Source: Candidatus Eiseniibacteriota bacterium (GTDB lineage Bacteria; ARS69). Taken from it: a stretch of DNA of 15,411 nt. The stretch is from contig JBQTGV010000143.1 of the NCBI GenBank assembly GCA_052390515.1, positions 1-15,411 of the forward strand, given 5' to 3'. The stretch's first letter is position 1. Each line of letters starts with the position of its first letter. The translations under genes and the position numbers were made by a program. The notes under the pieces were generated by a model that was not told where the DNA came from, ran no database searches, and was given only the letters and a program-made list of their open reading frames with translations. Positions 6,155 to 15,287 of the stretch are shown piece after piece.

Positions 6155-7585
6155 GTGCCCTTCACCACGACGCCCGACGCCCCGACCCTTCGGCCTGCGT
6201 CCGGTTGCGGCACGCTGGAGTCGCCGTGGACCGGCTGGGAAGCCCAGATCGAGGTTCGAACCCACGAGCCGAACACCTTCCGGCTCCTGCCGGGGTTCTA
6301 CGGCGTGTCCCGGCCGGTACGGCTGGCCGATGGCGTTTCCCTGGCCGAGGATCCCGGGGACGCGGGGCGGGCCTGGTTCCTGCCCGTGGCGAGCGCGCCG
6401 CTCGAGACGCTCTTCGAGATCGAGGGGCGGCGACGGGTGCGCCTCTCCGGCGTCTGCTTCAACGGCCGAGGCGCGCGGGCACGCCACGGCATCGTGGTGC
6501 GCTCCGTGCAAGGCCTGGAGATCATGCGCTGCCGCTTCGAGGACTTCGCCGACCCCGAGGGCGGCGCGATTCTGGTGGACGGCGGCCCCCAGTTCCCAGC
6601 GCGCGAGATCGTCGTGCAGTCCTGCTCGTTCCTGCACGGGAGCTCGGGTCTTCGCCTGGGGCGAAATGCCGCCGATCTGCTCGTCGTGGACAATCTCTTC
6701 GAGGAGATCACCGGCTCCTCGCTCTGGATCGATCCGCGGGACGAGTGGGCCGACTACGGCCTCATCTTCGTGCAGAACCGAATGCGGGCCGCGCGCGAGA
6801 CCCGCACCGCGCCGTTCGTGACCATACGCCCGGGCGCGGAGGGGATCCGCATCGCCGGGAACACGCTGGAAGCGGAGCGCGCCGCGCAGGGCGGGGACCT
6901 CGCCGCGATCGAGGTCCGCGGCGGCGGACCGCGCAGCCGCCGGCGGCTCGAGCTCATGGTGAACCGGATCGTCGGAGTCGGAGGTCCCGCGGTGCGCGCG
7001 CGTCAGTGCGGGCCCGGATTCGCCGTGGCGGGTAACGAGATTGTCGCGTGCGGGAACGGCCGCGACGGCTCCATCGACCTCCTCGGCTGCCACGGGATCC
7101 TCGTCGAGGACAACCGCATCTCGGAGCCGTCGGGCGCGGGCATCCGCGCGCAGGACTGCTCCGGCGCGCGGCTCAACGGCAATGAAGTCGAGGGCGGCTC
7201 GCCCGTGCTGCCGCGTGGTGGGACGGTCGGACTGCTCGTCGAGGGCGAAGGCTCCGTGCGGCTGCGCCTTACCGACAACCGCGTCTCCGCCGTCCGCGAG
7301 GACGGGCTGCGCATCAACTCGTGCAAGGGACTTCGCGTCGTCGGTAACGAGGTGGAGGACTGCGGTCGGGGGATCTTCGTGGAGCGGGCGGAGCGTCTGC
7401 TGCTGGTCGGCAACGACTGCCGCGACAACGGGCAGGGCGGGATCCGCATCGACCGGAACGTGCGCCGCGGTTTCGTCGCGCTGAACTACGCGATCCTGAA
7501 CGGCACGTCGGACCTCCACGTCCGCGGGGAGCGGATCCGGTGCCGGAGCAACAAAGTGGACAGGGAGTCCCCCGCGGAGGAATGA
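6155..7585 (+). CDS. Right-handed parallel beta-helix repeat protein (pectate-lyase-like fold), no evident signal peptide
   Basis: 476 aa with repeated coils such as GILVEDNRIS, ARLNGNEVEG, LRLTDNRVS, LRVVGNEVED, LLLVGNDCRDN. The N-terminal LLPGFYGVSRPVRLADGVSL resembles the cap of pectate-lyase-3-type helices. GTG start has AGGGA upstream. Confidence 0.8.
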   Translation: MPFTTTPDAPTLRPASGCGTLESPWTGWEAQIEVRTHEPNTFRLLPGFYGVSRPVRLADGVSLAEDPGDAGRAWFLPVASAPLETLFEIEGRRRVRLSGVCFNGRGARARHGIVVRSVQGLEIMRCRFEDFADPEGGAILVDGGPQFPAREIVVQSCSFLHGSSGLRLGRNAADLLVVDNLFEEITGSSLWIDPRDEWADYGLIFVQNRMRAARETRTAPFVTIRPGAEGIRIAGNTLEAERAAQGGDLAAIEVRGGGPRSRRRLELMVNRIVGVGGPAVRARQCGPGFAVAGNEIVACGNGRDGSIDLLGCHGILVEDNRISEPSGAGIRAQDCSGARLNGNEVEGGSPVLPRGGTVGLLVEGEGSVRLRLTDNRVSAVREDGLRINSCKGLRVVGNEVEDCGRGIFVERAERLLLVGNDCRDNGQGGIRIDRNVRRGFVALNYAILNGTSDLHVRGERIRCRSNKVDRESPAEE

Positions 7586-7632
7586 GGCTTGATCCGGGGA
7601 GCGGATTGATGTAAATACGGCCCGGACTCGAG

Positions 7633-7661
7633 GTGAAGCTAGACCCGAGAAGGTGTATGCT
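7633..7661 (+). promoter_or_regulatory. Possible sigma70-type promoter for the rho leader
   Basis: GTGAAG (7633-7638), 17 nt spacer, TATGCT (7656-7661), in a relatively AT-rich patch. The -35 match is weak. Confidence 0.3.
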
Positions 7662-7667
7662 TGGGTA

Positions 7668-7988
7668 CGCGCTTCGAGTGAGGGGCCGCGTCAGTCGCCC
7701 CCCCGATCCCACCGGGACGCACCCCTTCCCGCGGATCGGGAACCCAGTAGGCGGAGGTCGGACCGGCTGGTGTCCGCCGGCCCTTCGCCCCGGGCGGCTC
7801 GTTCGAAGATGGGCGCGCATCGGTCGCCAGCAAGCCGTGTTCGGCAGCGCGCGCTCGACGGGGACTGCTCCCCGATGTCAGCCCGCCGTGCGGGCTCCTG
7901 AGAGAAGGACCGAAGGATCGGGTACGAACCCCGAGAAACCATCCCATCAACCGTGACCGGCGGCTCTTCGCCATGCCGGGGAGAACCC
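7668..7988 (+). promoter_or_regulatory. Long, potentially structured 5' leader or ncRNA upstream of rho
   Basis: No credible ORF. Inverted repeats read by eye: 7702-7709/7733-7740, 7750-7755/7773-7778, 7811-7818/7849-7856, 7859-7864/7869-7874, 7880-7886/7890-7896, 7918-7922/7930-7934, 7957-7964/7970-7979. No match to an RNA family I recognise. Confidence 0.4.
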
Positions 7989-9206
7989 TTGGACTCCTAT
8001 CGACCCAGCTCACGCTCCCGCCGTCCGCGGCCCCGCAAGCGGCCGGGATTCGTGGACCCCAACGCTGCCGGGGAGACCCGGCCCGAGCAGCCGCCCAGCA
8101 ACGGACAGCCGAACCAACCGAACCAGCAGAACCAGCCGAACCCGAAGGGCCCGAGGCACTCGCGGGGAAGGTGGCGGAAGAAAGCCAGCCGTGTCGACAG
8201 CGGCTACACCTCCTCCCCCGTTCCGAGCGGCAATCACCAGAACAACGGGCCCCAGCAGCAGAATCAGCGCCGCGGCAGACCCGGCGGGCGCGGACCCGGC
8301 CAGCGTCGCACCCGCATCCCCATCGGCGAGATCCCCGCGCTCAAGATGATCCAGCAGGGCGTGAGCATCGACCCGCAGGAGCGCTTCGTGCTGGAGACGA
8401 CCGCGGACGAGGTCACCACGCGGACGCTGGACTTGATGACGCCGATCGGCCGCGGCCAGCGCTGCCTCGTCGTGGCGCCGCCCATGGCCGGCAAGACGAC
8501 GCTCCTGATCAAGATCGCCAACGCGATCACGCTCAATTACCCGGGCGTGCACATCTACACGCTGCTGGTGGACGAGCGGCCCGAGGAGGTCACGCACTTC
8601 CGGCGCAGCACGCAGACCGAGGTGCACGCCGCCTCCAGCGACATGTCCACCACACAGCACATCCGGGTGGCGGAGGAGTGCGTCAACGTAGCGCTGGAGC
8701 GCGTGCTCAAGGGCGAAGACGTCGTGCTGCTGCTGGACTCCATCACGCGTCTGGCCCGTGCTTACAACACGGTCTCCGACTCCGGCGGCAGGACGCTCTC
8801 CGGCGGGCTGGACTCGCAGACGATGCTCGTGCCGCGACAGATCTTCGGCTCGGCGCGCAAGATCGAGAACGGCGGGAGCCTCACCATCATCGGCACGGCG
8901 CTGATCGACACCGGATCCCGCATGGACGAGGTCATCTTCCAGGAGTTCAAGGGCACCGGGAACATGGAGCTGTTCCTCTCCCGGGACCTCTTCACCAAGC
9001 GCATCTTCCCCTGCATCGACATCGAGAAGTCCGGCACCCGCAAGGAAGAGAAGCTCATCCCGGCGGAGGACATCCAGCGCATCCACCTGCTGCGGCGGCA
9101 CATGACCGCGATGAAGCCGGCCGAGGCGATGACGTTCCTGCTGGAGCTGCTGTCCCGTTACCGGACCAACGCGGACCTGCTGGGGAGCATGGTGGCCAAG
9201 AGGTAG
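7989..9206 (+). CDS. rho: Transcription termination factor Rho, atypical: ATPase domain intact, N-terminal RNA-binding domain replaced by a disordered Q/N/R/G-rich arm
   Basis: Motifs: LDLMTPIGRGQR, Walker A APPMAGKT, DERPEEVT, Walker B LLLDSITRLARAYN, Q-loop SGGRTLSGGLD, GGSLTIIGTALIDTGSRMDEVIFQEFKGTGNMEL, Arg finger SGTRKEE. TTG at 7989 with GGGGAG 5 nt upstream (405 aa) is preferred to the GTG at 7953. Confidence 0.92.
   Translation: MDSYRPSSRSRRPRPRKRPGFVDPNAAGETRPEQPPSNGQPNQPNQQNQPNPKGPRHSRGRWRKKASRVDSGYTSSPVPSGNHQNNGPQQQNQRRGRPGGRGPGQRRTRIPIGEIPALKMIQQGVSIDPQERFVLETTADEVTTRTLDLMTPIGRGQRCLVVAPPMAGKTTLLIKIANAITLNYPGVHIYTLLVDERPEEVTHFRRSTQTEVHAASSDMSTTQHIRVAEECVNVALERVLKGEDVVLLLDSITRLARAYNTVSDSGGRTLSGGLDSQTMLVPRQIFGSARKIENGGSLTIIGTALIDTGSRMDEVIFQEFKGTGNMELFLSRDLFTKRIFPCIDIEKSGTRKEEKLIPAEDIQRIHLLRRHMTAMKPAEAMTFLLELLSRYRTNADLLGSMVAKR
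8106..8141 (+). repeat. Four imperfect 9-bp tandem repeats encoding QPN-QPN-QQN-QPN in the Rho N-terminal arm
   Basis: cagccgaac caaccgaac cagcagaac cagccgaac. Confidence 0.85.
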
Positions 9207-9265
9207 CTCTGCGGCTCACAGCCTCACGTACGCCCCCGGCTGCGTTCGGCGACGAGCGCCGGAGG

Positions 9266-9883
9266 TCAGTCCAGCGAACCTTCGCCGCTCCCGGCCAGCG
9301 CGCGCCGCGCCAGCGCCGCCTGCGCCGCGACCACCGAGGCCCTGCTGTCGACTTCAAGCGTGGCACCGGTCAGCGTCCCGAGGGCGGCGAGGTCCGCGCC
9401 TCGGAATCCCGTGCCGTCGTACGCCGGGACCGTGATCAAGAACCCGTACCGGCCGTACTCGCCTTCGACGATGGCTCGGACCAGCGAAGTCACATCCAGA
9501 CGGAGCGTCTCTTCCCGCGAACCCGACGCAAGGACGACCGTGTCGTAGTGCGCGTCGTCGAAGTCTCCGCCCGGAGCAGCCCAGGGGGCGTCCCAGGTGA
9601 CCGTTCCCGCACTCCACTCCGTGGCCAGCAGGTAGACGCGGACGGGTAGATCCCGCAGGGCCTGGAGCCCCGGGAGCGTGAAGCTCAGCGTAGCCGCGGT
9701 GATGAACTGATCCTCGAACGAGGAAAGATCGCCGGGCTTCACCAGGACTCGCGTGTTCCCCGAGCGATCCGAGATCACGGAGGTCTCCACGATCGAGACC
9801 GCCACGGGGTCCGCATGAGTCGCCAGGGGTGCCCCGGCGAGAACCGCTCCGAGGATCCCGGCGAGGGTCGCGTTCCGTTGCAT
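9266..9883 (-). CDS. Secreted DNRLRE-like beta-sandwich domain protein
   Basis: ATG at 9883 with GAGGAGG upstream (205 aa). Signal peptide MQRNATLAGILGAVLAGAPLATHA. Motif pattern RVLV..DLS...ITAATLSF, VYLLATEWSAGTVTW, PWAAPGGDFD, LDVTSLVR, YGFLI is typical of DNRLRE-type domains. Confidence 0.7.
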   Translation of the reverse strand: MQRNATLAGILGAVLAGAPLATHADPVAVSIVETSVISDRSGNTRVLVKPGDLSSFEDQFITAATLSFTLPGLQALRDLPVRVYLLATEWSAGTVTWDAPWAAPGGDFDDAHYDTVVLASGSREETLRLDVTSLVRAIVEGEYGRYGFLITVPAYDGTGFRGADLAALGTLTGATLEVDSRASVVAAQAALARRALAGSGEGSLD

Positions 9884-9894
9884 GGCTGTCCTCC

Positions 9895-11199
9895 TCACCG
9901 ATACAGTGTCTTGAGTTGACCCCAGGTCATCGCCCGCACCGCCACGCTCCCGCAGCCCACGCCGAACGCTCCGACCTGGCCGCAGGTGGTGTTGTTGCCG
10001 GCGGCGTAGGGCGATTGGGCGTCCAGGGTGAAGTCCAGGCTTGGGGCGTCACAGAAGCGGGGATCCAGGAACACGTCCGTGGCCGATGGGATGTAGTCGC
10101 CGACGCCTCCCTCGTTGTTCCAGAAGCCGTTACAGCTGCCGGGAAGCGGCGCGAAGATCCCAATGGCAGCGGCCCCCGTGCAGTTCACAAATAGGTTGTT
10201 CGAGAAGTTGAAGATGCCAGCGCTGCCCATTCCGACGACCGCCGATCCCGTCGTTGTTGCCGGCGCGTGGCACCCCACGAACGTGTTGTTCGAGACGTCG
10301 CCGTTGAAGAAACCGAACAGCAGACCCGCCGCGCCCCCGTTGCCGTACGTGCTGTCGTAGGCGAACGTGTTGTAGCGAATCGTCCCGAACGAGTACGTGA
10401 CCCAGAGGCCTCCTCCGGTATCCGAGGTGTTCACGTTCCTCAGGAACAGGTTCCGCTCCACCTGCACCGTGTATGGATCCACCAGACCGACGGCCGCACC
10501 GTCGACCGACATTCGGTTGTCGATGAACTCGCAGTCCAGGATGACGGCGGAGTCGTTGTTGCCGGTGCCGGAGAGCTCCACGGCTCTGCCCTGGTTTCCT
10601 TCAAAGCGGCAGCGGAGGATCTCGATGCTGCAGTCGACGGCGTAAACGCCAGCCGCGCCACCGGAGACGTTGAAACTCGCCTCACAATCCTCCAGCAGCA
10701 AGTCGCAGTTCTGCACTTCGACCGCCCCGCTGTGGCCCGAGGATGTGATGCCGCTCACACCGCACGCGCGGAGTACGAGACGTCCTGCATTGTCCGCGAA
10801 TACCCCCGATCCGGCACTCGCGGCACCGGTGATCGACAGGCTCTCCACGGTGGCCTCCGTCCCGGGATGGTTCGCAAACAGAAGAGGCGTGACGAAACCC
10901 GTTCCCGATACACCGGCATCAAGGGTCGTGACGTCCTTCCCACTTCCGACGATTGTCACGCCGCCCTTTAGAAAGCCACACGACGTGAACGTCTTCAACG
11001 AGCCTCCGATCGAAACGATGCGAGTCTCCTTGGCGGTCCACACGCCCGGTCCGACAACTACCGAGTCGCCAGCGGTGGAAGCGTCGATGGCGACCAGAAC
11101 GCTCGGGTAGTCCTCCGGTACTCGCAGAACTCCAGCCGCACAGGGAAGAGCGGCTAGCAGGAACGCGCCAGCGGTGACATGAGGGAGCATGAGGTTCAC
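9895..11199 (-). CDS. Secreted right-handed beta-helix (Pmp-like repeat) protein with C-terminal TWGQLKTLYR tail
   Basis: GTG at 11199 (or ATG at 11190) follows GAGGAGGGAG. Signal peptide ...AGAFLLAALPCAAG, then the cap VLRVPEDYPS...AIDAS..GDSVVVGPGVW, FxxN/GGA-type repeats (CRFEGN, CEFIDN, NLFLRN..GGGL, NTFVGC), and the C-terminal cap DPRFCD...DFTL...SP...CGQVGAFGVGC. The ORF-track extension to 11322 overlaps the upstream gene and is unlikely. Confidence 0.82.
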   Translation of the reverse strand: MNLMLPHVTAGAFLLAALPCAAGVLRVPEDYPSVLVAIDASTAGDSVVVGPGVWTAKETRIVSIGGSLKTFTSCGFLKGGVTIVGSGKDVTTLDAGVSGTGFVTPLLFANHPGTEATVESLSITGAASAGSGVFADNAGRLVLRACGVSGITSSGHSGAVEVQNCDLLLEDCEASFNVSGGAAGVYAVDCSIEILRCRFEGNQGRAVELSGTGNNDSAVILDCEFIDNRMSVDGAAVGLVDPYTVQVERNLFLRNVNTSDTGGGLWVTYSFGTIRYNTFAYDSTYGNGGAAGLLFGFFNGDVSNNTFVGCHAPATTTGSAVVGMGSAGIFNFSNNLFVNCTGAAAIGIFAPLPGSCNGFWNNEGGVGDYIPSATDVFLDPRFCDAPSLDFTLDAQSPYAAGNNTTCGQVGAFGVGCGSVAVRAMTWGQLKTLYR

Positions 11200-12671
11200 A
11201 GAGTTCTCCCTCCTCACTTCACGATAGTGACGGTTCGCGTGGCGCGATAGCCGTCCCCCCGTAGTTGGACAAAGTAGACGCCCGACATGACGCGCGATCC
11301 ACCCTGGTCGGTTCCGGTCCAAGTGGCTCGGTGGCGTCCGGGAGGTACGACCCCCTCCACCAACGTTCTGACCGCCCTACCCGCCACGTCGTACACCACA
11401 AGGCTCACGCGCCCGGAGTAACCCGCGGGCACTTCGTATGCGATGCTTGTTGCAGCGCGAAGCGGGTTGGGGGAACTCGCGGCCAGCGCGAACGCCGTCG
11501 GGAGCGGATCGCCTCGAAGTTCTGGGGCGCCCCTTGCAACCTCCCTCTCCGGACCAACCCCCTGGGCCGGGCCAGCAAGCACACTCGGCGCCCCGCACAA
11601 CTGTTCCGACCCAAGAGGAGGGTCGTAGCTGACGTTGCCAGTAATCGTAGTGCCGATCGTCGTCAAATCCGTCGTAATCGAGCCACTCTTCCACCACGTG
11701 TTCTTCAGTGCGTCGATCGTCACCGTTGCGTCTGACGACACCACGTTCTTCCCGCCTTGCGCGGTCTCTTCAGCAATACTGTTACTCCCTTCTGTTGCGG
11801 CCTGGGTGTCAGGCCGCAGAAGCACGCGGTAGCCAGGGTCCGTGTGGAAGTTCTTCTCCAGGCTCGTCTTGAGCACGTTCTGTGAGAACCGTACTGTGTC
11901 CCCAGCGGCCGCGCTCGTCCTCGTGTAGTAGACGCCGTTCCTGTTATCGATGATCTCGTTGCACGATACGCGCGTCTCCGCACACTGCTGCAGGTGCAGT
12001 CCGCGGTTGGGCCAGAGAGTGATCTCGTTGTTCTCGATCCGCGGGTGTCGATGGTCGCAGCCCCAGAGGACGAGGAGCCCCGTCTGGGCCTGCTGCCCGC
12101 CTTCTCCCTTTCCTACGATCGTGTTGGACACGATGCGCAGCGTGTCCTGCCCGACAGGTTGGTCGCAGTAGCTCTTCGACCACTCCGCCTTGATCCCAAA
12201 GGCGGACAACCCCAGCGCGTTCTGCCACGTCACCGTCGTGCCTTCGATTCGTGCTGCCGAGTAGTAGACGTGTATGCCCGTTCGGGTCGCGGGCAGGTTC
12301 CCACCCGGCGCCCCGTCGATCCAGCTGTCTTTGATCCATGTCTTGGAGCCGTAGTCCACCACCGCCTCGTCCCGGAAGTCATAGACCCGGCTGTTCCACA
12401 GCCGCGCGTTCGTCGCGCCGTCGAAGAAGACCGGATCCGTGGCGTGGCCGATCGAGGCGTAGCTCAGGATCAGCCCTGCCTCGCGGCAAGTGATCCCGAA
12501 CCAGTCGTCTCTCGCCTGCGTCGGAGCATCCGAGGTGAACCACACCGAGTCCGCGCCCGCACCTCCCGTCTCGAGCCAGCCGTCCACCGTGAACTCCACC
12601 CGGAGCTGGTCCGCCTCGAAGGTCGGTACGGTCCAGGTCGCGCCCAGGTCCACGTCGTGAGCGAGAACTCT

Positions 12672-13286
12672 GGTGGGGGCGTCGAGAACCCACTGGTAGG
12701 TGTACGGGATCCGCGTATCACGATCGACGTAGATGTCCGCTTTCTCGGTGCTGGCGAACGTGCAGTGGATGAGGTTCCCGCTCAGCGAGTCGACGCCGAT
12801 CGCGTACTTCGCCCCATTGAAGTCCACGTAGGACAGGCTGCTGAGCGAGTTGTCGGAGGCGTCGAGGAACCGCACGCCGTAGAAGTCCGCCGGGTTCGTC
12901 GGTGCCGGGTGGTCGGATCGAATGGCGATGTGCGTCGTGGTGTTTCCGTCCGCGAGCAACCGACCCCGGATGATCAGCTCCGACAGTGAGTCGATCTCAT
13001 GGGGTTGTCCGGGCTGTTGATCGAGGCCTGCTGCGAAGCCGAGCTTCCTCCCTGCGGGGATGGTCAGGGTCTGGCCAGTGTCGACCAGGAAGTCCCGGTC
13101 AAGGCTGACGTCGGTCACGTTGCCCTGCCAGACCAGCGACGAGCTCGCCAGGAGCGCATTCAGCTGCCCGAGCGTCAGCCCTTGGTCTTCCAGAGCCAGC
13201 GCACCCCGCGCGTCGCCGAACAGCGTGTTCCCGAGCGTCGCGTCGTCCAGGTCCCCGATGCGGATGCCGTACCAGTCTCCTGCCGC
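12672..13286 (-). repeat. Internal duplication copy B (~205 aa, AAGDWYGIRIGDLD...LDAPT)
   Basis: Aligns with 13431-14045 at a constant 759-bp offset (13252/14011 and 12724/13483 checked). Long identical peptide stretches such as RFLDASDNSLSSLSYVDFNGAKYAIGVDSLSGNLIHCTFA. Confidence 0.95.
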
Positions 13287-13430
13287 GGGTGAGGCAGCTC
13301 CCGAACGGAACTGAACTTGGCTTCCGGTTCCCTGAGTCGTGAGCGTCCCGCTCACCACGATCTCGACCCGCGCAGGGTCCTTTCCTCCATGGGTCGGTGG
13401 TCCGGCGTCGATCGGCGCCGCCTTCACGAC

Positions 13431-14045
13431 CGTCGGCGCATCCAGGTTCCACTCATACCCGTCGGCGATCCGCGTGTCCCGGTCGACGTAGATGTCCGCC
13501 TTCTCGGAGTTGGCGAACGTACAGTGAATGAGGTTCCCGCTCAGCGAGTCGACGCCGATCGCGTACTTCGCCCCGTTGAAGTCCACGTAGGAGAGGCTGC
13601 TCAGAGAGTTGTCCGAGGCGTCGAGGAACCGCACGCCGAAGAAGTCCGCCGGGTTCGCCGGCGCGGGGTCGTCGGATCGAATGGCGATGTGCGTCGTGGT
13701 GTTCCCGTCGGCCAGCAGCCGGCCCCGGACGATCAGCTCCGAGAGGGGATCGATCTCGTAAGGCTGTCCGGACTGCTGATCGACGCCGGCCGCGAAGCCG
13801 AGCTTCCTCCCCGCGGGGATCGTCAAGGTTTGCCCGGTGTCGACCAGGAAGTCACGGTTCAGGCTGACGTCCGTGACATTGCCCAGCCAGACCAGGGAGG
13901 AGCCTGCCAGAAGCGTATTCAGCTGAGCCAGCGTGAGCCCTGAATCCTCCAGCGCCAGGGCACCTCGCGCGTACCGGAACTCGACGTTCGCCAGGGACGC
14001 GGCATCGAGGTCCCCGATGCGGATGCCGTACCAGTCGCCGGCGGC
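13431..14045 (-). repeat. Internal duplication copy A (~205 aa)
   Basis: Partner of 12672-13286. Many of the differences are at synonymous positions. Confidence 0.95.
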
Positions 14046-15287
14046 GGCTGTGGCCACCTCCCCGCCCCCCAGATAGTGCGTGTTCGCCGCGTCGTCACGG
14101 GAAGAGGTAAACGTAACCTCGTTCCCAACCGTACCCGCGACCACCAGACCGGCGGAGGCGGGAACGACGATCTCCACGCGCTGCTGATCGACACCTGCGG
14201 CGAGCAGGTCCTCAGTACTGGCGATCACCGTGGCGCCGGCGTTGACCGTGAGCGTGCCTCCCGGCGGCACCTCCACGTCCTGCGTCAGCCGGATCCTGCC
14301 GTCCCACTCCATGTCAGGGGGCAGGACGAACGGCTGGTTTGCGGCCGGCGGGTCGTCGTACCTCACGGTCACCTGCATCACGCCGTTCCCACCACCGGGC
14401 TCGGTCTCCCAGTGGATGTCGTAGAACGTGAGGCCGCTGTACATCGACTGCTCGCGCCGCATCGAGCACATGTCGGGGTCGCGGTACGCGGTCTCATTCG
14501 GGTCATTCGGGACGAACCAGTAGAGGTCGGTGCTCGGGTTGGTCCACGGTGCGAAGACGCTCGACGCACCGTTCCCCCAGAGCTCCTCCACGTCTCCCAG
14601 GACCAGTTCGTCCTCGCAAGCCATGCACGACATCTCGTCGAATCCGCTGACCGGATCCGGCACCCAGGTGAGGGTGTCGATCATTCCCTGAGGCACCTCG
14701 ATGTCGACCGTCGGCGGGAAATTCTCGTCAGGGCAGCAGTCCAGCGGGCACTCGTCCGCACACGGAGGCGGCGTGCAGAACGGCGCGCTCTGCCCTCCAA
14801 GCTCGCCCAGCCACCAGCCCGCGATGGAGGGGTTCGTCGGTGTGATGCAGCAGTTTCCGGACCCCTTGTGCGACTGATGGTCCGAAACGTGGGCAATCAC
14901 GAGCCCGCTGTTACCCTTCACTCCACCGTCACAGGCACCACCTAGGGTCGATCCGTCGGTGAACACCGTGGCCGTGCTATCGCGATTCTCGATTAAGAAG
15001 AACTGTTTCGGGTCCTGCGTACGCACGACCGCGAAGGGAGTCACGCCCCCCGAGCCGGCGGTGGAAACGTCCGCGAGGGCCAGGACCTGCTCCGATCCGT
15101 CCGTCGTCAGTTGAATGTCGTGCTGCGGTGAGATCCATCCCAGTTTCCACCGCAGGATCGTCTCCATGATGTCGCCCTTGTAGAAATCGGCGACGGTGCC
15201 GTCCATGATCCCGTAGCGGCCGATCGACTTGATGTGACCCGGCACGTCCAGTCCGTCCAGCGTGGGCAAAGTGTTCGCGAGGGCGAC

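Follow-up and report, generated by a model that had tools for sequence, protein, structure and literature searches.

Can a Rho factor work without the module that takes first hold of its RNA? Rho action begins when the primary site, situated in the oligonucleotide/oligosaccharide-binding (OB) fold, binds C-rich Rho-utilization (rut) RNA, and both the need for this site and its role, as a tether or as an allosteric switch, are still debated. The question is raised by a rho-like gene on contig JBQTGV010000143.1, whose 15,411 nucleotides, i.e., the whole stretch of DNA analysed here, we call the window. A sequence-only reading of the window had described the product of this gene as a Rho homologue in which a prion-like, RG-rich disordered arm occupies the place of the primary RNA-binding domain. 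We found that the whole primary RNA-binding module (the helix bundle and the OB fold) is replaced by a disordered tail of ~113 aa with a net charge of +19. A family in which the primary site is deleted, the motor kept and a basic tail added offers a natural experiment, to be read against the canonical partner in the same cell, and the comparison could reveal whether the ring is able to load and close in the absence of a primary site, what a polycationic intrinsically disordered region (IDR) can stand in for, and whether mixed rings exist.

The reading frame of the gene is open on the + strand from a GTG at 7953 to a stop codon at 9204-9206. The in-frame TTG at 7989, which had been taken previously as the start, is preceded by GGGGAG at 7977-7982, and the protein translated from it begins MDSYRPSSRSRRPRPRKR, in the same register as the N-termini of relatives, e.g., MKSYQPSSRSRRPRPRKR and MSSYSPNQRSRRPRSRRR. 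Given this shared register, we regard 7989..9206 (405 aa) as the best gene model; starting from the alternative GTG would make the OB-less Rho paralogue 12 aa longer. When the 405-aa protein was searched against Pfam, ATP-synt_ab (PF00006, E 1.4e-24) was the sole domain matched, as the sequence-only reading had anticipated, and neither Rho_N (PF07498) nor Rho_RNA_bind (PF07497) gave a match at E values up to 1. NF006886, the NCBIfam model of full-length Rho, matched at E 8.3e-115 and covered positions 137-413 of 413. Since the match starts only at model position 137, Rho similarity begins at ~nt 8361, in line with the earlier estimate of ~8340. The score of 383.8 bits exceeds the NF006886 cut-off of 315, and annotation pipelines therefore label the protein plain “Rho”, though it falls under the cut-off of TIGR00767 (369.8 bits vs 509.45). 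Against NF041509 (“paralog_Rho2, short form”), it covered 81-359 of 360 with 322 bits, the cut-off being 628. The plain name “transcription termination factor Rho” conceals that a domain is lacking and can lead surveys of Rho function in uncultured phyla astray.

A six-frame search of the whole 4.27-Mb source assembly (223 contigs) with PF07497 detected a single OB fold, located in a canonical rho gene on contig C26, and none within or upstream of the OB-less gene. When the arms were compared with the canonical Rho N-terminal profile using hhalign, the probability was 0.1% for the window’s clade and 0.4% for the Eisenbacteria clade, and the only piece in common was the connector ...SIDPxERF. 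As a positive control, the N-terminal regions of 21 Acidobacteriota-type short paralogues, most of them without a Pfam OB match, reached 95.2% (E 2.5e-8, 98 columns), which establishes that hhalign is able to detect remote OB folds. AlphaFold2, supplied with a 65-sequence alignment, assigned residues 1-110 a predicted local distance difference test score (pLDDT) of 41-54 with no secondary structure, placed no helices before residue 116, and predicted a RecA-type domain with pLDDT >90 from residue ~120 onwards. Pfam, the extent of the NF006886 match, hhalign and AlphaFold2 thus agree that a disordered basic arm has replaced the helix bundle and the OB fold, which bears out the central claim of the sequence-only reading. 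No OB fold was found in the N-terminus or in an upstream frame by Pfam, the six-frame search or AlphaFold2, and a cryptic or frame-shifted one is ruled out by the six-frame search, hhalign and AlphaFold2.

The remainder of the protein is a Rho motor. All PDB sequence matches were Rho proteins (the best being 8hsj, 303 bits), and the top 50 Foldseek matches in the PDB were likewise all Rho chains (~285 columns, root-mean-square deviation 1.4-2.3 A, ~50% identity). An ungapped alignment to E. coli Rho 1pv4, in which the E. coli number equals the residue counted from the TTG plus 15, located the motifs listed in Table 1. Walker A GKT, DERPEE, Walker B, the Q-loop, the R-loop and the Arg finger are invariant or nearly so in 14 proteins of the window’s own clade and in 65 family sequences, and among the 14 the ATPase domain as a whole is nearly invariant. 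The GRTLSGGLD of the Q-loop is also present in Thermus Rho 8hsj, and TGSRMD of the R-loop in the canonical Rho of the same genome. DERPEE we take to provide the catalytic Glu and the Arg valve, from the roles of E. coli E211 and R212, and the names and roles given to the other motifs are in part assumed in the same way. Rho motif classes are named generically in PMC11347177. In the P-loop, 36 of the 121 family proteins carry APPMAGKT, 74 SPPKAGKT and 11 APPKAGKT. The positions EcLys184, EcMet186, EcLeu320 and EcPhe355 are confirmed in PMC8828861, where bicyclomycin resistance of M. tuberculosis Rho is assigned to the change EcLeu320 to MtbMet495; the window protein keeps Leu at this position, and we therefore make no claim of bicyclomycin resistance for it. 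Taken together, these alignments show that the ATPase and predicted secondary RNA-site motifs are intact in the OB-less protein.

The arm itself (residues 1-113) is composed chiefly of R (17.7%), P (16.8%), G (12.4%), Q (10.6%), S (9.7%) and N (8.8%), and V, I, L, M, F, W and C together account for only 8 residues. Of its earlier description as basic and RG-rich, the first part stands and the second does not, as the arm holds 3 RG dipeptides and no RGG and is R/P/G/Q/N-rich instead. We extended this analysis to those 75 of 121 family proteins whose arm, according to the stored gene call, is 40 aa or longer. Every one of these arms carries a net positive charge (median +0.154 per residue, 22% R, 5.5% hydrophobic residues, median length 97 aa), and close to the N-terminus 54 of them contain a 10-aa window with six or more R/K. 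Q+N, in contrast, varies from 0 to 30%, with the arm studied here ranking 13th at 20%; its best 60-aa Q/N window contains 20 Q/N alongside 9 charged residues and 10 prolines, and the corresponding windows of ten relatives contain 4-19 Q/N. Given this variation, “prion-like” is not supported as a family property: positive charge is the conserved property of the arm, and Q/N richness a local flavour. Within the window’s own clade the arm evolves fast, with three islands kept, namely RSRRPRPRKR, R-V-D-x-G-Y and an R/G-rich run before RR(P/T)RIPIGEIPALK.

The suggestion that the gene is a paralogue accompanying a canonical Rho proved correct. The full-length rho on contig C26 of the same genome encodes 507 aa, matches NF006886 over 1-413 at 706 bits and contains the GYGFLR and DDIYVS segments; the OB-less protein is 55% identical to it over 275 aa. 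The same architecture is widespread among relatives. When 8000 database relatives were scored, each of the best 120 had PF00006 without Rho_RNA_bind or Rho_N, and relatives of 229-730 aa were eligible, so that full-length forms could have surfaced. The genome collection treats the window’s lineage as a phylum-level group, a single family with 8 genera and 12 species genomes. Of these genomes, 11 encode a full-length Rho as well as an OB-less copy, the match of the latter beginning at model position 135-140; the twelfth genome is 67% complete. Canonical Rho was present in all 51 Eisenbacteria genomes sampled, accompanied by an OB-less second copy in 30 (29 of 50 without the unpublished genome G059), an OB-keeping short copy in 12 and neither in 9. 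It was also present in all 41 Krumholzibacteriota genomes, where the corresponding counts were 5, 10 and 26. No OB-less copy was found in 29 unrelated genomes. OB-less and OB-keeping second copies were together in none of the 104 genomes examined, though they form separate clades, and they may fill the same role. In public labels, the nearest relatives appear as Gemmatimonadota or “bacterium”, and more distant ones as Candidatus Eisenbacteria and Krumholzibacteriota. One genome in the window’s lineage has a third, partial Rho-like match (G011:C1:73200-73529; model 70-179, 165 bits) in a 333-aa open frame, which may be a remnant or another derived form.

To place the OB-less proteins among Rho proteins, we inferred a maximum-likelihood tree of the ATPase domain (72 rows, 287 columns; IQ-TREE, LG+C20 with posterior mean site frequencies, PMSF; unrooted). 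Rows were hand-picked from the database and genome matches; locus L112 is absent, having no frame with the search motif, and the Acidobacteriota row L031, which has no Pfam OB match, fell among the short paralogues and was counted there. The 28 OB-less rows fell on one side of a single branch (ultrafast bootstrap, UFBoot, 100; Shimodaira-Hasegawa-like approximate likelihood-ratio test, SH-aLRT, 98), which was present in 100% of 200 bootstrap trees. Canonical Rho (18 rows), the short paralogues of Eisenbacteria (7 rows) and, within the OB-less clade, the window’s lineage (9 rows) each formed a clade with UFBoot 100 / SH-aLRT 100. The tree thus shows the OB-less architecture kept in a single clade over at least three phylum-level lineages, and from parsimony on the unrooted topology we infer that the OB fold was lost rather than gained. 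In quick trees, the canonical Rho of the window’s lineage clusters with its counterparts from Eisenbacteria and Krumholzibacteriota (SH-aLRT 95-96). OB-less and canonical Rho have different fixed residues (at least 90% in each group) in thirteen columns, and in 11 of these the residue most frequent among the 26 short paralogues is that of the OB-less proteins. This agreement suggests that short and OB-less forms make up one “second Rho” lineage.

How does this protein compare with known forms of Rho? Canonical Rho (TIGR00767/NF006886; 1pv4, 3ice, 8hsj) shares with it the C-terminal ATPase domain and the catalytic and secondary-site motifs, but the window protein has no helix bundle and no OB fold, hence no primary (rut) site. 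The short second Rho, known as Group B (D’Heygere et al. 2013), as Type 4 and 2d (PMC11347177) and as the NF041509 architecture, is likewise a second copy beside a full-length Rho, lacks the helix bundle, often has a polybasic N-terminus and shares the OB-less state at the 11 columns mentioned above. It differs in that the OB fold is kept and can be seen by Pfam Rho_RNA_bind or by hhalign (95%), with NF006886 matching from position 45-52 and NF041509 over 1-360. The short copies of Thermoanaerobaculia and Holophagae (L041, L047, L057, L079 and others) have a polybasic RRRRRPRRR followed by a degenerate OB fold (VEGYLWVRDNG...). The degenerate OB fold of such Acidobacteriota-type copies is mostly missed by Pfam, and the aromatic residues that contact RNA in canonical Rho are replaced in it. 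Judging from these sequences, short paralogues combining a polybasic N-terminus with a degenerate OB fold are plausible intermediates of domain replacement.

The Rho proteins of B. thetaiotaomicron, B. fragilis, M. tuberculosis and C. botulinum also have a compositionally biased, disordered N-terminal region, and several such regions are basic and raise RNA affinity or drive condensation (PMC11347177, PMC13269538, PMC4703818). In these IDR-containing or prion-like proteins, however, disorder adds to a complete N-terminal domain, whereas in the window protein it replaces it. The closest description in print is that of Moreira et al. 2024 (NAR 52:8979, PMC11347177), whose supplement describes a class of “Rho-like ATPase domain” sequences. 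These number 28 and come from 28 of the 2730 complete genomes surveyed, which belong to Pseudomonadota (myxobacteria among them), a single PVC (Planctomycetes-Verrucomicrobia-Chlamydiae) species and a single Chloroflexi species. As in the window protein, the Rho ATPase/bicyclomycin-binding domain alone is detectable in them and the essential residues are kept: they are called “well conserved” with “the essential residues”, and in Myxococcales the initial region is D/G/R-rich. They come from other phyla and are treated in one paragraph with no tree; they may belong to the OB-less clade described here or stem from independent losses. The novelty that the sequence-only reading had implied for an OB-less Rho is reduced by these published sequences. 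Our full-text literature search, which did not extend to bioRxiv supplements, retrieved no study of OB-less Rho besides that paragraph, and the searched passages of a 2025 review (PMC12360218) do not mention OB-less forms. The architecture has thus been noted once in print, from other phyla, and is here a real, conserved second Rho.

What, then, would a Rho without a primary site do? The reading we favour, to which we give an even chance, sees the protein as an active, ring-shaped translocase whose tails tether RNA non-specifically, i.e., as a second functional member of the Rho family. In such a scheme the OB-less protein would form a Rho-like hexameric ring, whose six polycationic tails would capture RNA electrostatically, without the YC (pyrimidine-cytosine)/rut specificity of the OB cleft, and hand it to the conserved Q- and R-loops of the central channel. 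The ring would then move 5'->3' along the RNA, driven by ATP, and contacts with NusG and RNA polymerase may assist its loading onto transcription complexes. The outcome would be a second termination or RNA-remodelling activity, less sequence-selective, beside the housekeeping Rho. Several published observations are consistent with these steps. Basic insertions increase RNA affinity in other Rho proteins (PMC11347177), and in vivo E. coli can largely do without recognition by the primary site if NusG helps (PMC4150792). The KOW domain of NusG binds the C-terminal domain of Rho and helps the ring to close even when the RNA contains no C (PMC7819879, citing Lawson et al. 2018); in the pre-termination complex, the contacts of Rho to NusG, the beta flap tip and omega are all made via the ATPase domains (10.1101/2022.08.29.505764); and hexamer-cohesion motifs are placed in the C-terminal domain (PMC12360218).

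Other observations weigh against an active translocase. In E. coli, termination still needed a primary-site ligand, for which an allosteric role was proposed (10.1101/2022.08.29.505764), and for this reason a ring without a primary site may be inactive or need another trigger. ATPase-only sequences are “not functional Rho factors” in the classification of Moreira et al. 2024 (PMC11347177). At the P-loop position that aligns with E. coli K181, the window’s clade has Met throughout and the rest of the family Lys. No gene neighbour is conserved across phyla in 18 loci to indicate a pathway. Expression of the OB-less gene is weakly hinted at, by leader contigs only: in two soil studies, contigs from RNA libraries span 7613-7935 with 0-2 differences per contig, and near-identical contigs are listed for the leader only. 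Those over the coding part are 85-92% alike and stacked on the most conserved Rho segments, and hence derive from other organisms. Lastly, the OB-less protein never occurs without canonical Rho (104 of 104 genomes), and this constant company is as compatible with dependence or modulation as with autonomy.

A stronger version of autonomy is less likely than not, and we advance it tentatively: the OB-less proteins would constitute an ancient Rho class that loads without OB fold or rut, via the six tails and/or NusG and RNA polymerase, and serves as a sequence-independent second pathway of termination or surveillance in Eisenbacteria, Krumholzibacteriota and the window’s lineage. The short paralogues with a degenerate OB fold would then be its living intermediates.

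The dependent alternative is that the protein is a modulatory subunit, forming mixed hexamers with canonical Rho that contain fewer OB sites and added basic tails, and thereby tuning RNA specificity, ring closure or activity. Hetero-hexamers have been raised for short second copies (Moreira et al. 2024, PMC11347177), and the ever-present canonical Rho, with 55% identity across the domain that holds the ring together, would provide the partner. Even so, we consider this serious rival rather unlikely: the paralogues are split by long, fully supported branches of ~0.5 changes per column each, the 13 separating columns set the two groups apart, and the complete set of catalytic and RNA-loop motifs, needless for a passive subunit, is retained.

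Basic disordered tails are typical non-specific RNA tethers, and loss of rut recognition entails loss of targeting to nascent untranslated RNA. Both would suit a Rho motor re-used for an RNA task other than termination, such as remodelling or chaperoning, R-loop removal, help in RNA decay or scaffolding of condensates, the last recalling the IDR-driven condensation of Bacteroides thetaiotaomicron Rho (PMC13269538). We hold such a re-use, though a serious rival as well, to be improbable, seeing that none of the 18 loci offers a genomic context tying the gene to RNA decay or another pathway, that Q/N richness is not conserved, and that the surface facing RNA polymerase and NusG in E. coli would, by analogy, belong to the retained domain.

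An assembly or gene-calling error or a recent 5'-truncated rho pseudogene, which the fragmentation of the assembly (223 contigs) and the many spurious long open reading frames (ORFs) of this high-G+C region might invite, is scarcely credible and is refuted as far as sequence data go, because relatives share the domain loss (120/120 best database matches from several sources, 11/12 lineage genomes and other phyla). Moreover, the arm contains conserved motifs, the ATPase domain hardly varies, the genome has an intact canonical rho besides, and X2, a DNA run other than the probable source, has contigs over the whole stretch.

Table 1. Features of the window, with positions counted from its first nucleotide and residues from the TTG at 7989.
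Feature	Position	Strand	Evidence or remark
OB-less Rho paralogue, coding sequence	7989..9206	+	ORF; NF006886 E 8.3e-115; N-termini of relatives; GGGGAG at 7977-7982
Disordered polybasic arm, aa 1-113, in place of helix bundle and OB fold	7989..8327	+	Composition; pLDDT 41-54; no Pfam match; hhalign 0.1%
Arginine-rich motif RSRRPRPRKR, aa 9-18	8013..8042	+	14 own-clade proteins: R12 and R16 invariant, R9 at least 90%
Motif R-V-D-S-G-Y, aa 68-73, inside arm	8190..8207	+	14 sequences: G72 invariant, R68 and Y73 at least 90%; no predicted structure
Connector helix and Rho RecA-type ATPase/translocase domain, aa 114-405	8328..9203	+	PF00006; PDB matches; Foldseek; pLDDT >90
P-loop / Walker A APPMAGKT, aa 163-170; Met where E. 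coli has K181	8475..8498	+	1pv4 alignment; invariant in 14 own-clade proteins
DERPEE, aa 195-200; aligned with E. coli E211 and R212	8571..8588	+	1pv4 alignment; invariant in 65 sequences
Walker B LLDSITR, aa 248-254	8730..8750	+	1pv4 alignment; 14- and 65-sequence alignments
Predicted Q-loop (secondary RNA-binding site) SGGRTLSGGLD, aa 265-275	8781..8813	+	Alignment to solved Rho
Predicted R-loop (secondary RNA-binding site) TGSRMD, aa 308-313	8910..8927	+	1pv4 alignment; both family alignments
SGTRKEE, aa 348-354, Arg finger aligned with E. coli R366	9030..9050	+	1pv4 alignment; both family alignments
Putative promoter CTTGAT, 13 nt, TGATGTAAATA	7588..7617	+	Right after the stop of the upstream beta-helix gene
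Putative 5' leader, ~370 nt	7618..7988	+	Distance from putative promoter to gene
Right-handed beta-helix protein	6155-7585	+	Directly upstream of the Rho-like gene
Three further beta-helix/disaggregatase-like proteins	within 9266-15269	-	Downstream of the Rho-like gene
Major facilitator superfamily (MFS) transporter		-	Neighbour gene
Phosphoenolpyruvate (PEP) carboxykinase		-	Neighbour gene
Glucan phosphorylase		-	Neighbour gene

A spacer of 403 nt precedes the Rho-like gene. In 5 of 6 loci of the window’s own lineage, the motif CTTG[AC]T-N13-TG[GA]TGTAnAnA is found in the corresponding position, which suggests a promoter of its own and, in relatives, a leader of 374-539 nt. A generic sigma-70 promoter scan called no promoters, the putative element at 7588-7617 included, and a terminator scan returned 2 terminator-like sites, both on the minus strand. 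As for RNA structure in the leader, an Rfam search of 7400-9400 gave one chance match (E 0.8), the single-sequence fold was no stabler than shuffles (z -0.29), and the RNAalifold consensus was weak (-1.99 kcal/mol, 9 pairs) with no clear covariation. Canonical rho genes are known to have long autoregulatory leaders; by analogy, the OB-less copy may be regulated through its leader too.

Long ORFs in other frames overlap the Rho-like gene (7973-9649 on the + strand, 8010-9101 on the - strand, and others) and recur at the loci of relatives; in this DNA (~70% G+C) they resemble shadows cast by the coding frame, which is conserved, rather than genes. A role as a defence-system gene was rejected, as PADLOC returned only a 21-bit P-loop match to mad8 for the Rho-like protein and no match for two neighbouring genes. 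All 7 loci of the window’s lineage keep the upstream beta-helix gene, but none of the 11 loci that belong to Eisenbacteria, Krumholzibacteriota or relatives without a label does so. Altogether, four genes for right-handed beta-helix, NosD-like or disaggregatase-like proteins flank the Rho-like gene, the largest encoding 1350 aa with a C-terminal FlgD Ig-like domain, and their products are probably secreted or surface-located.

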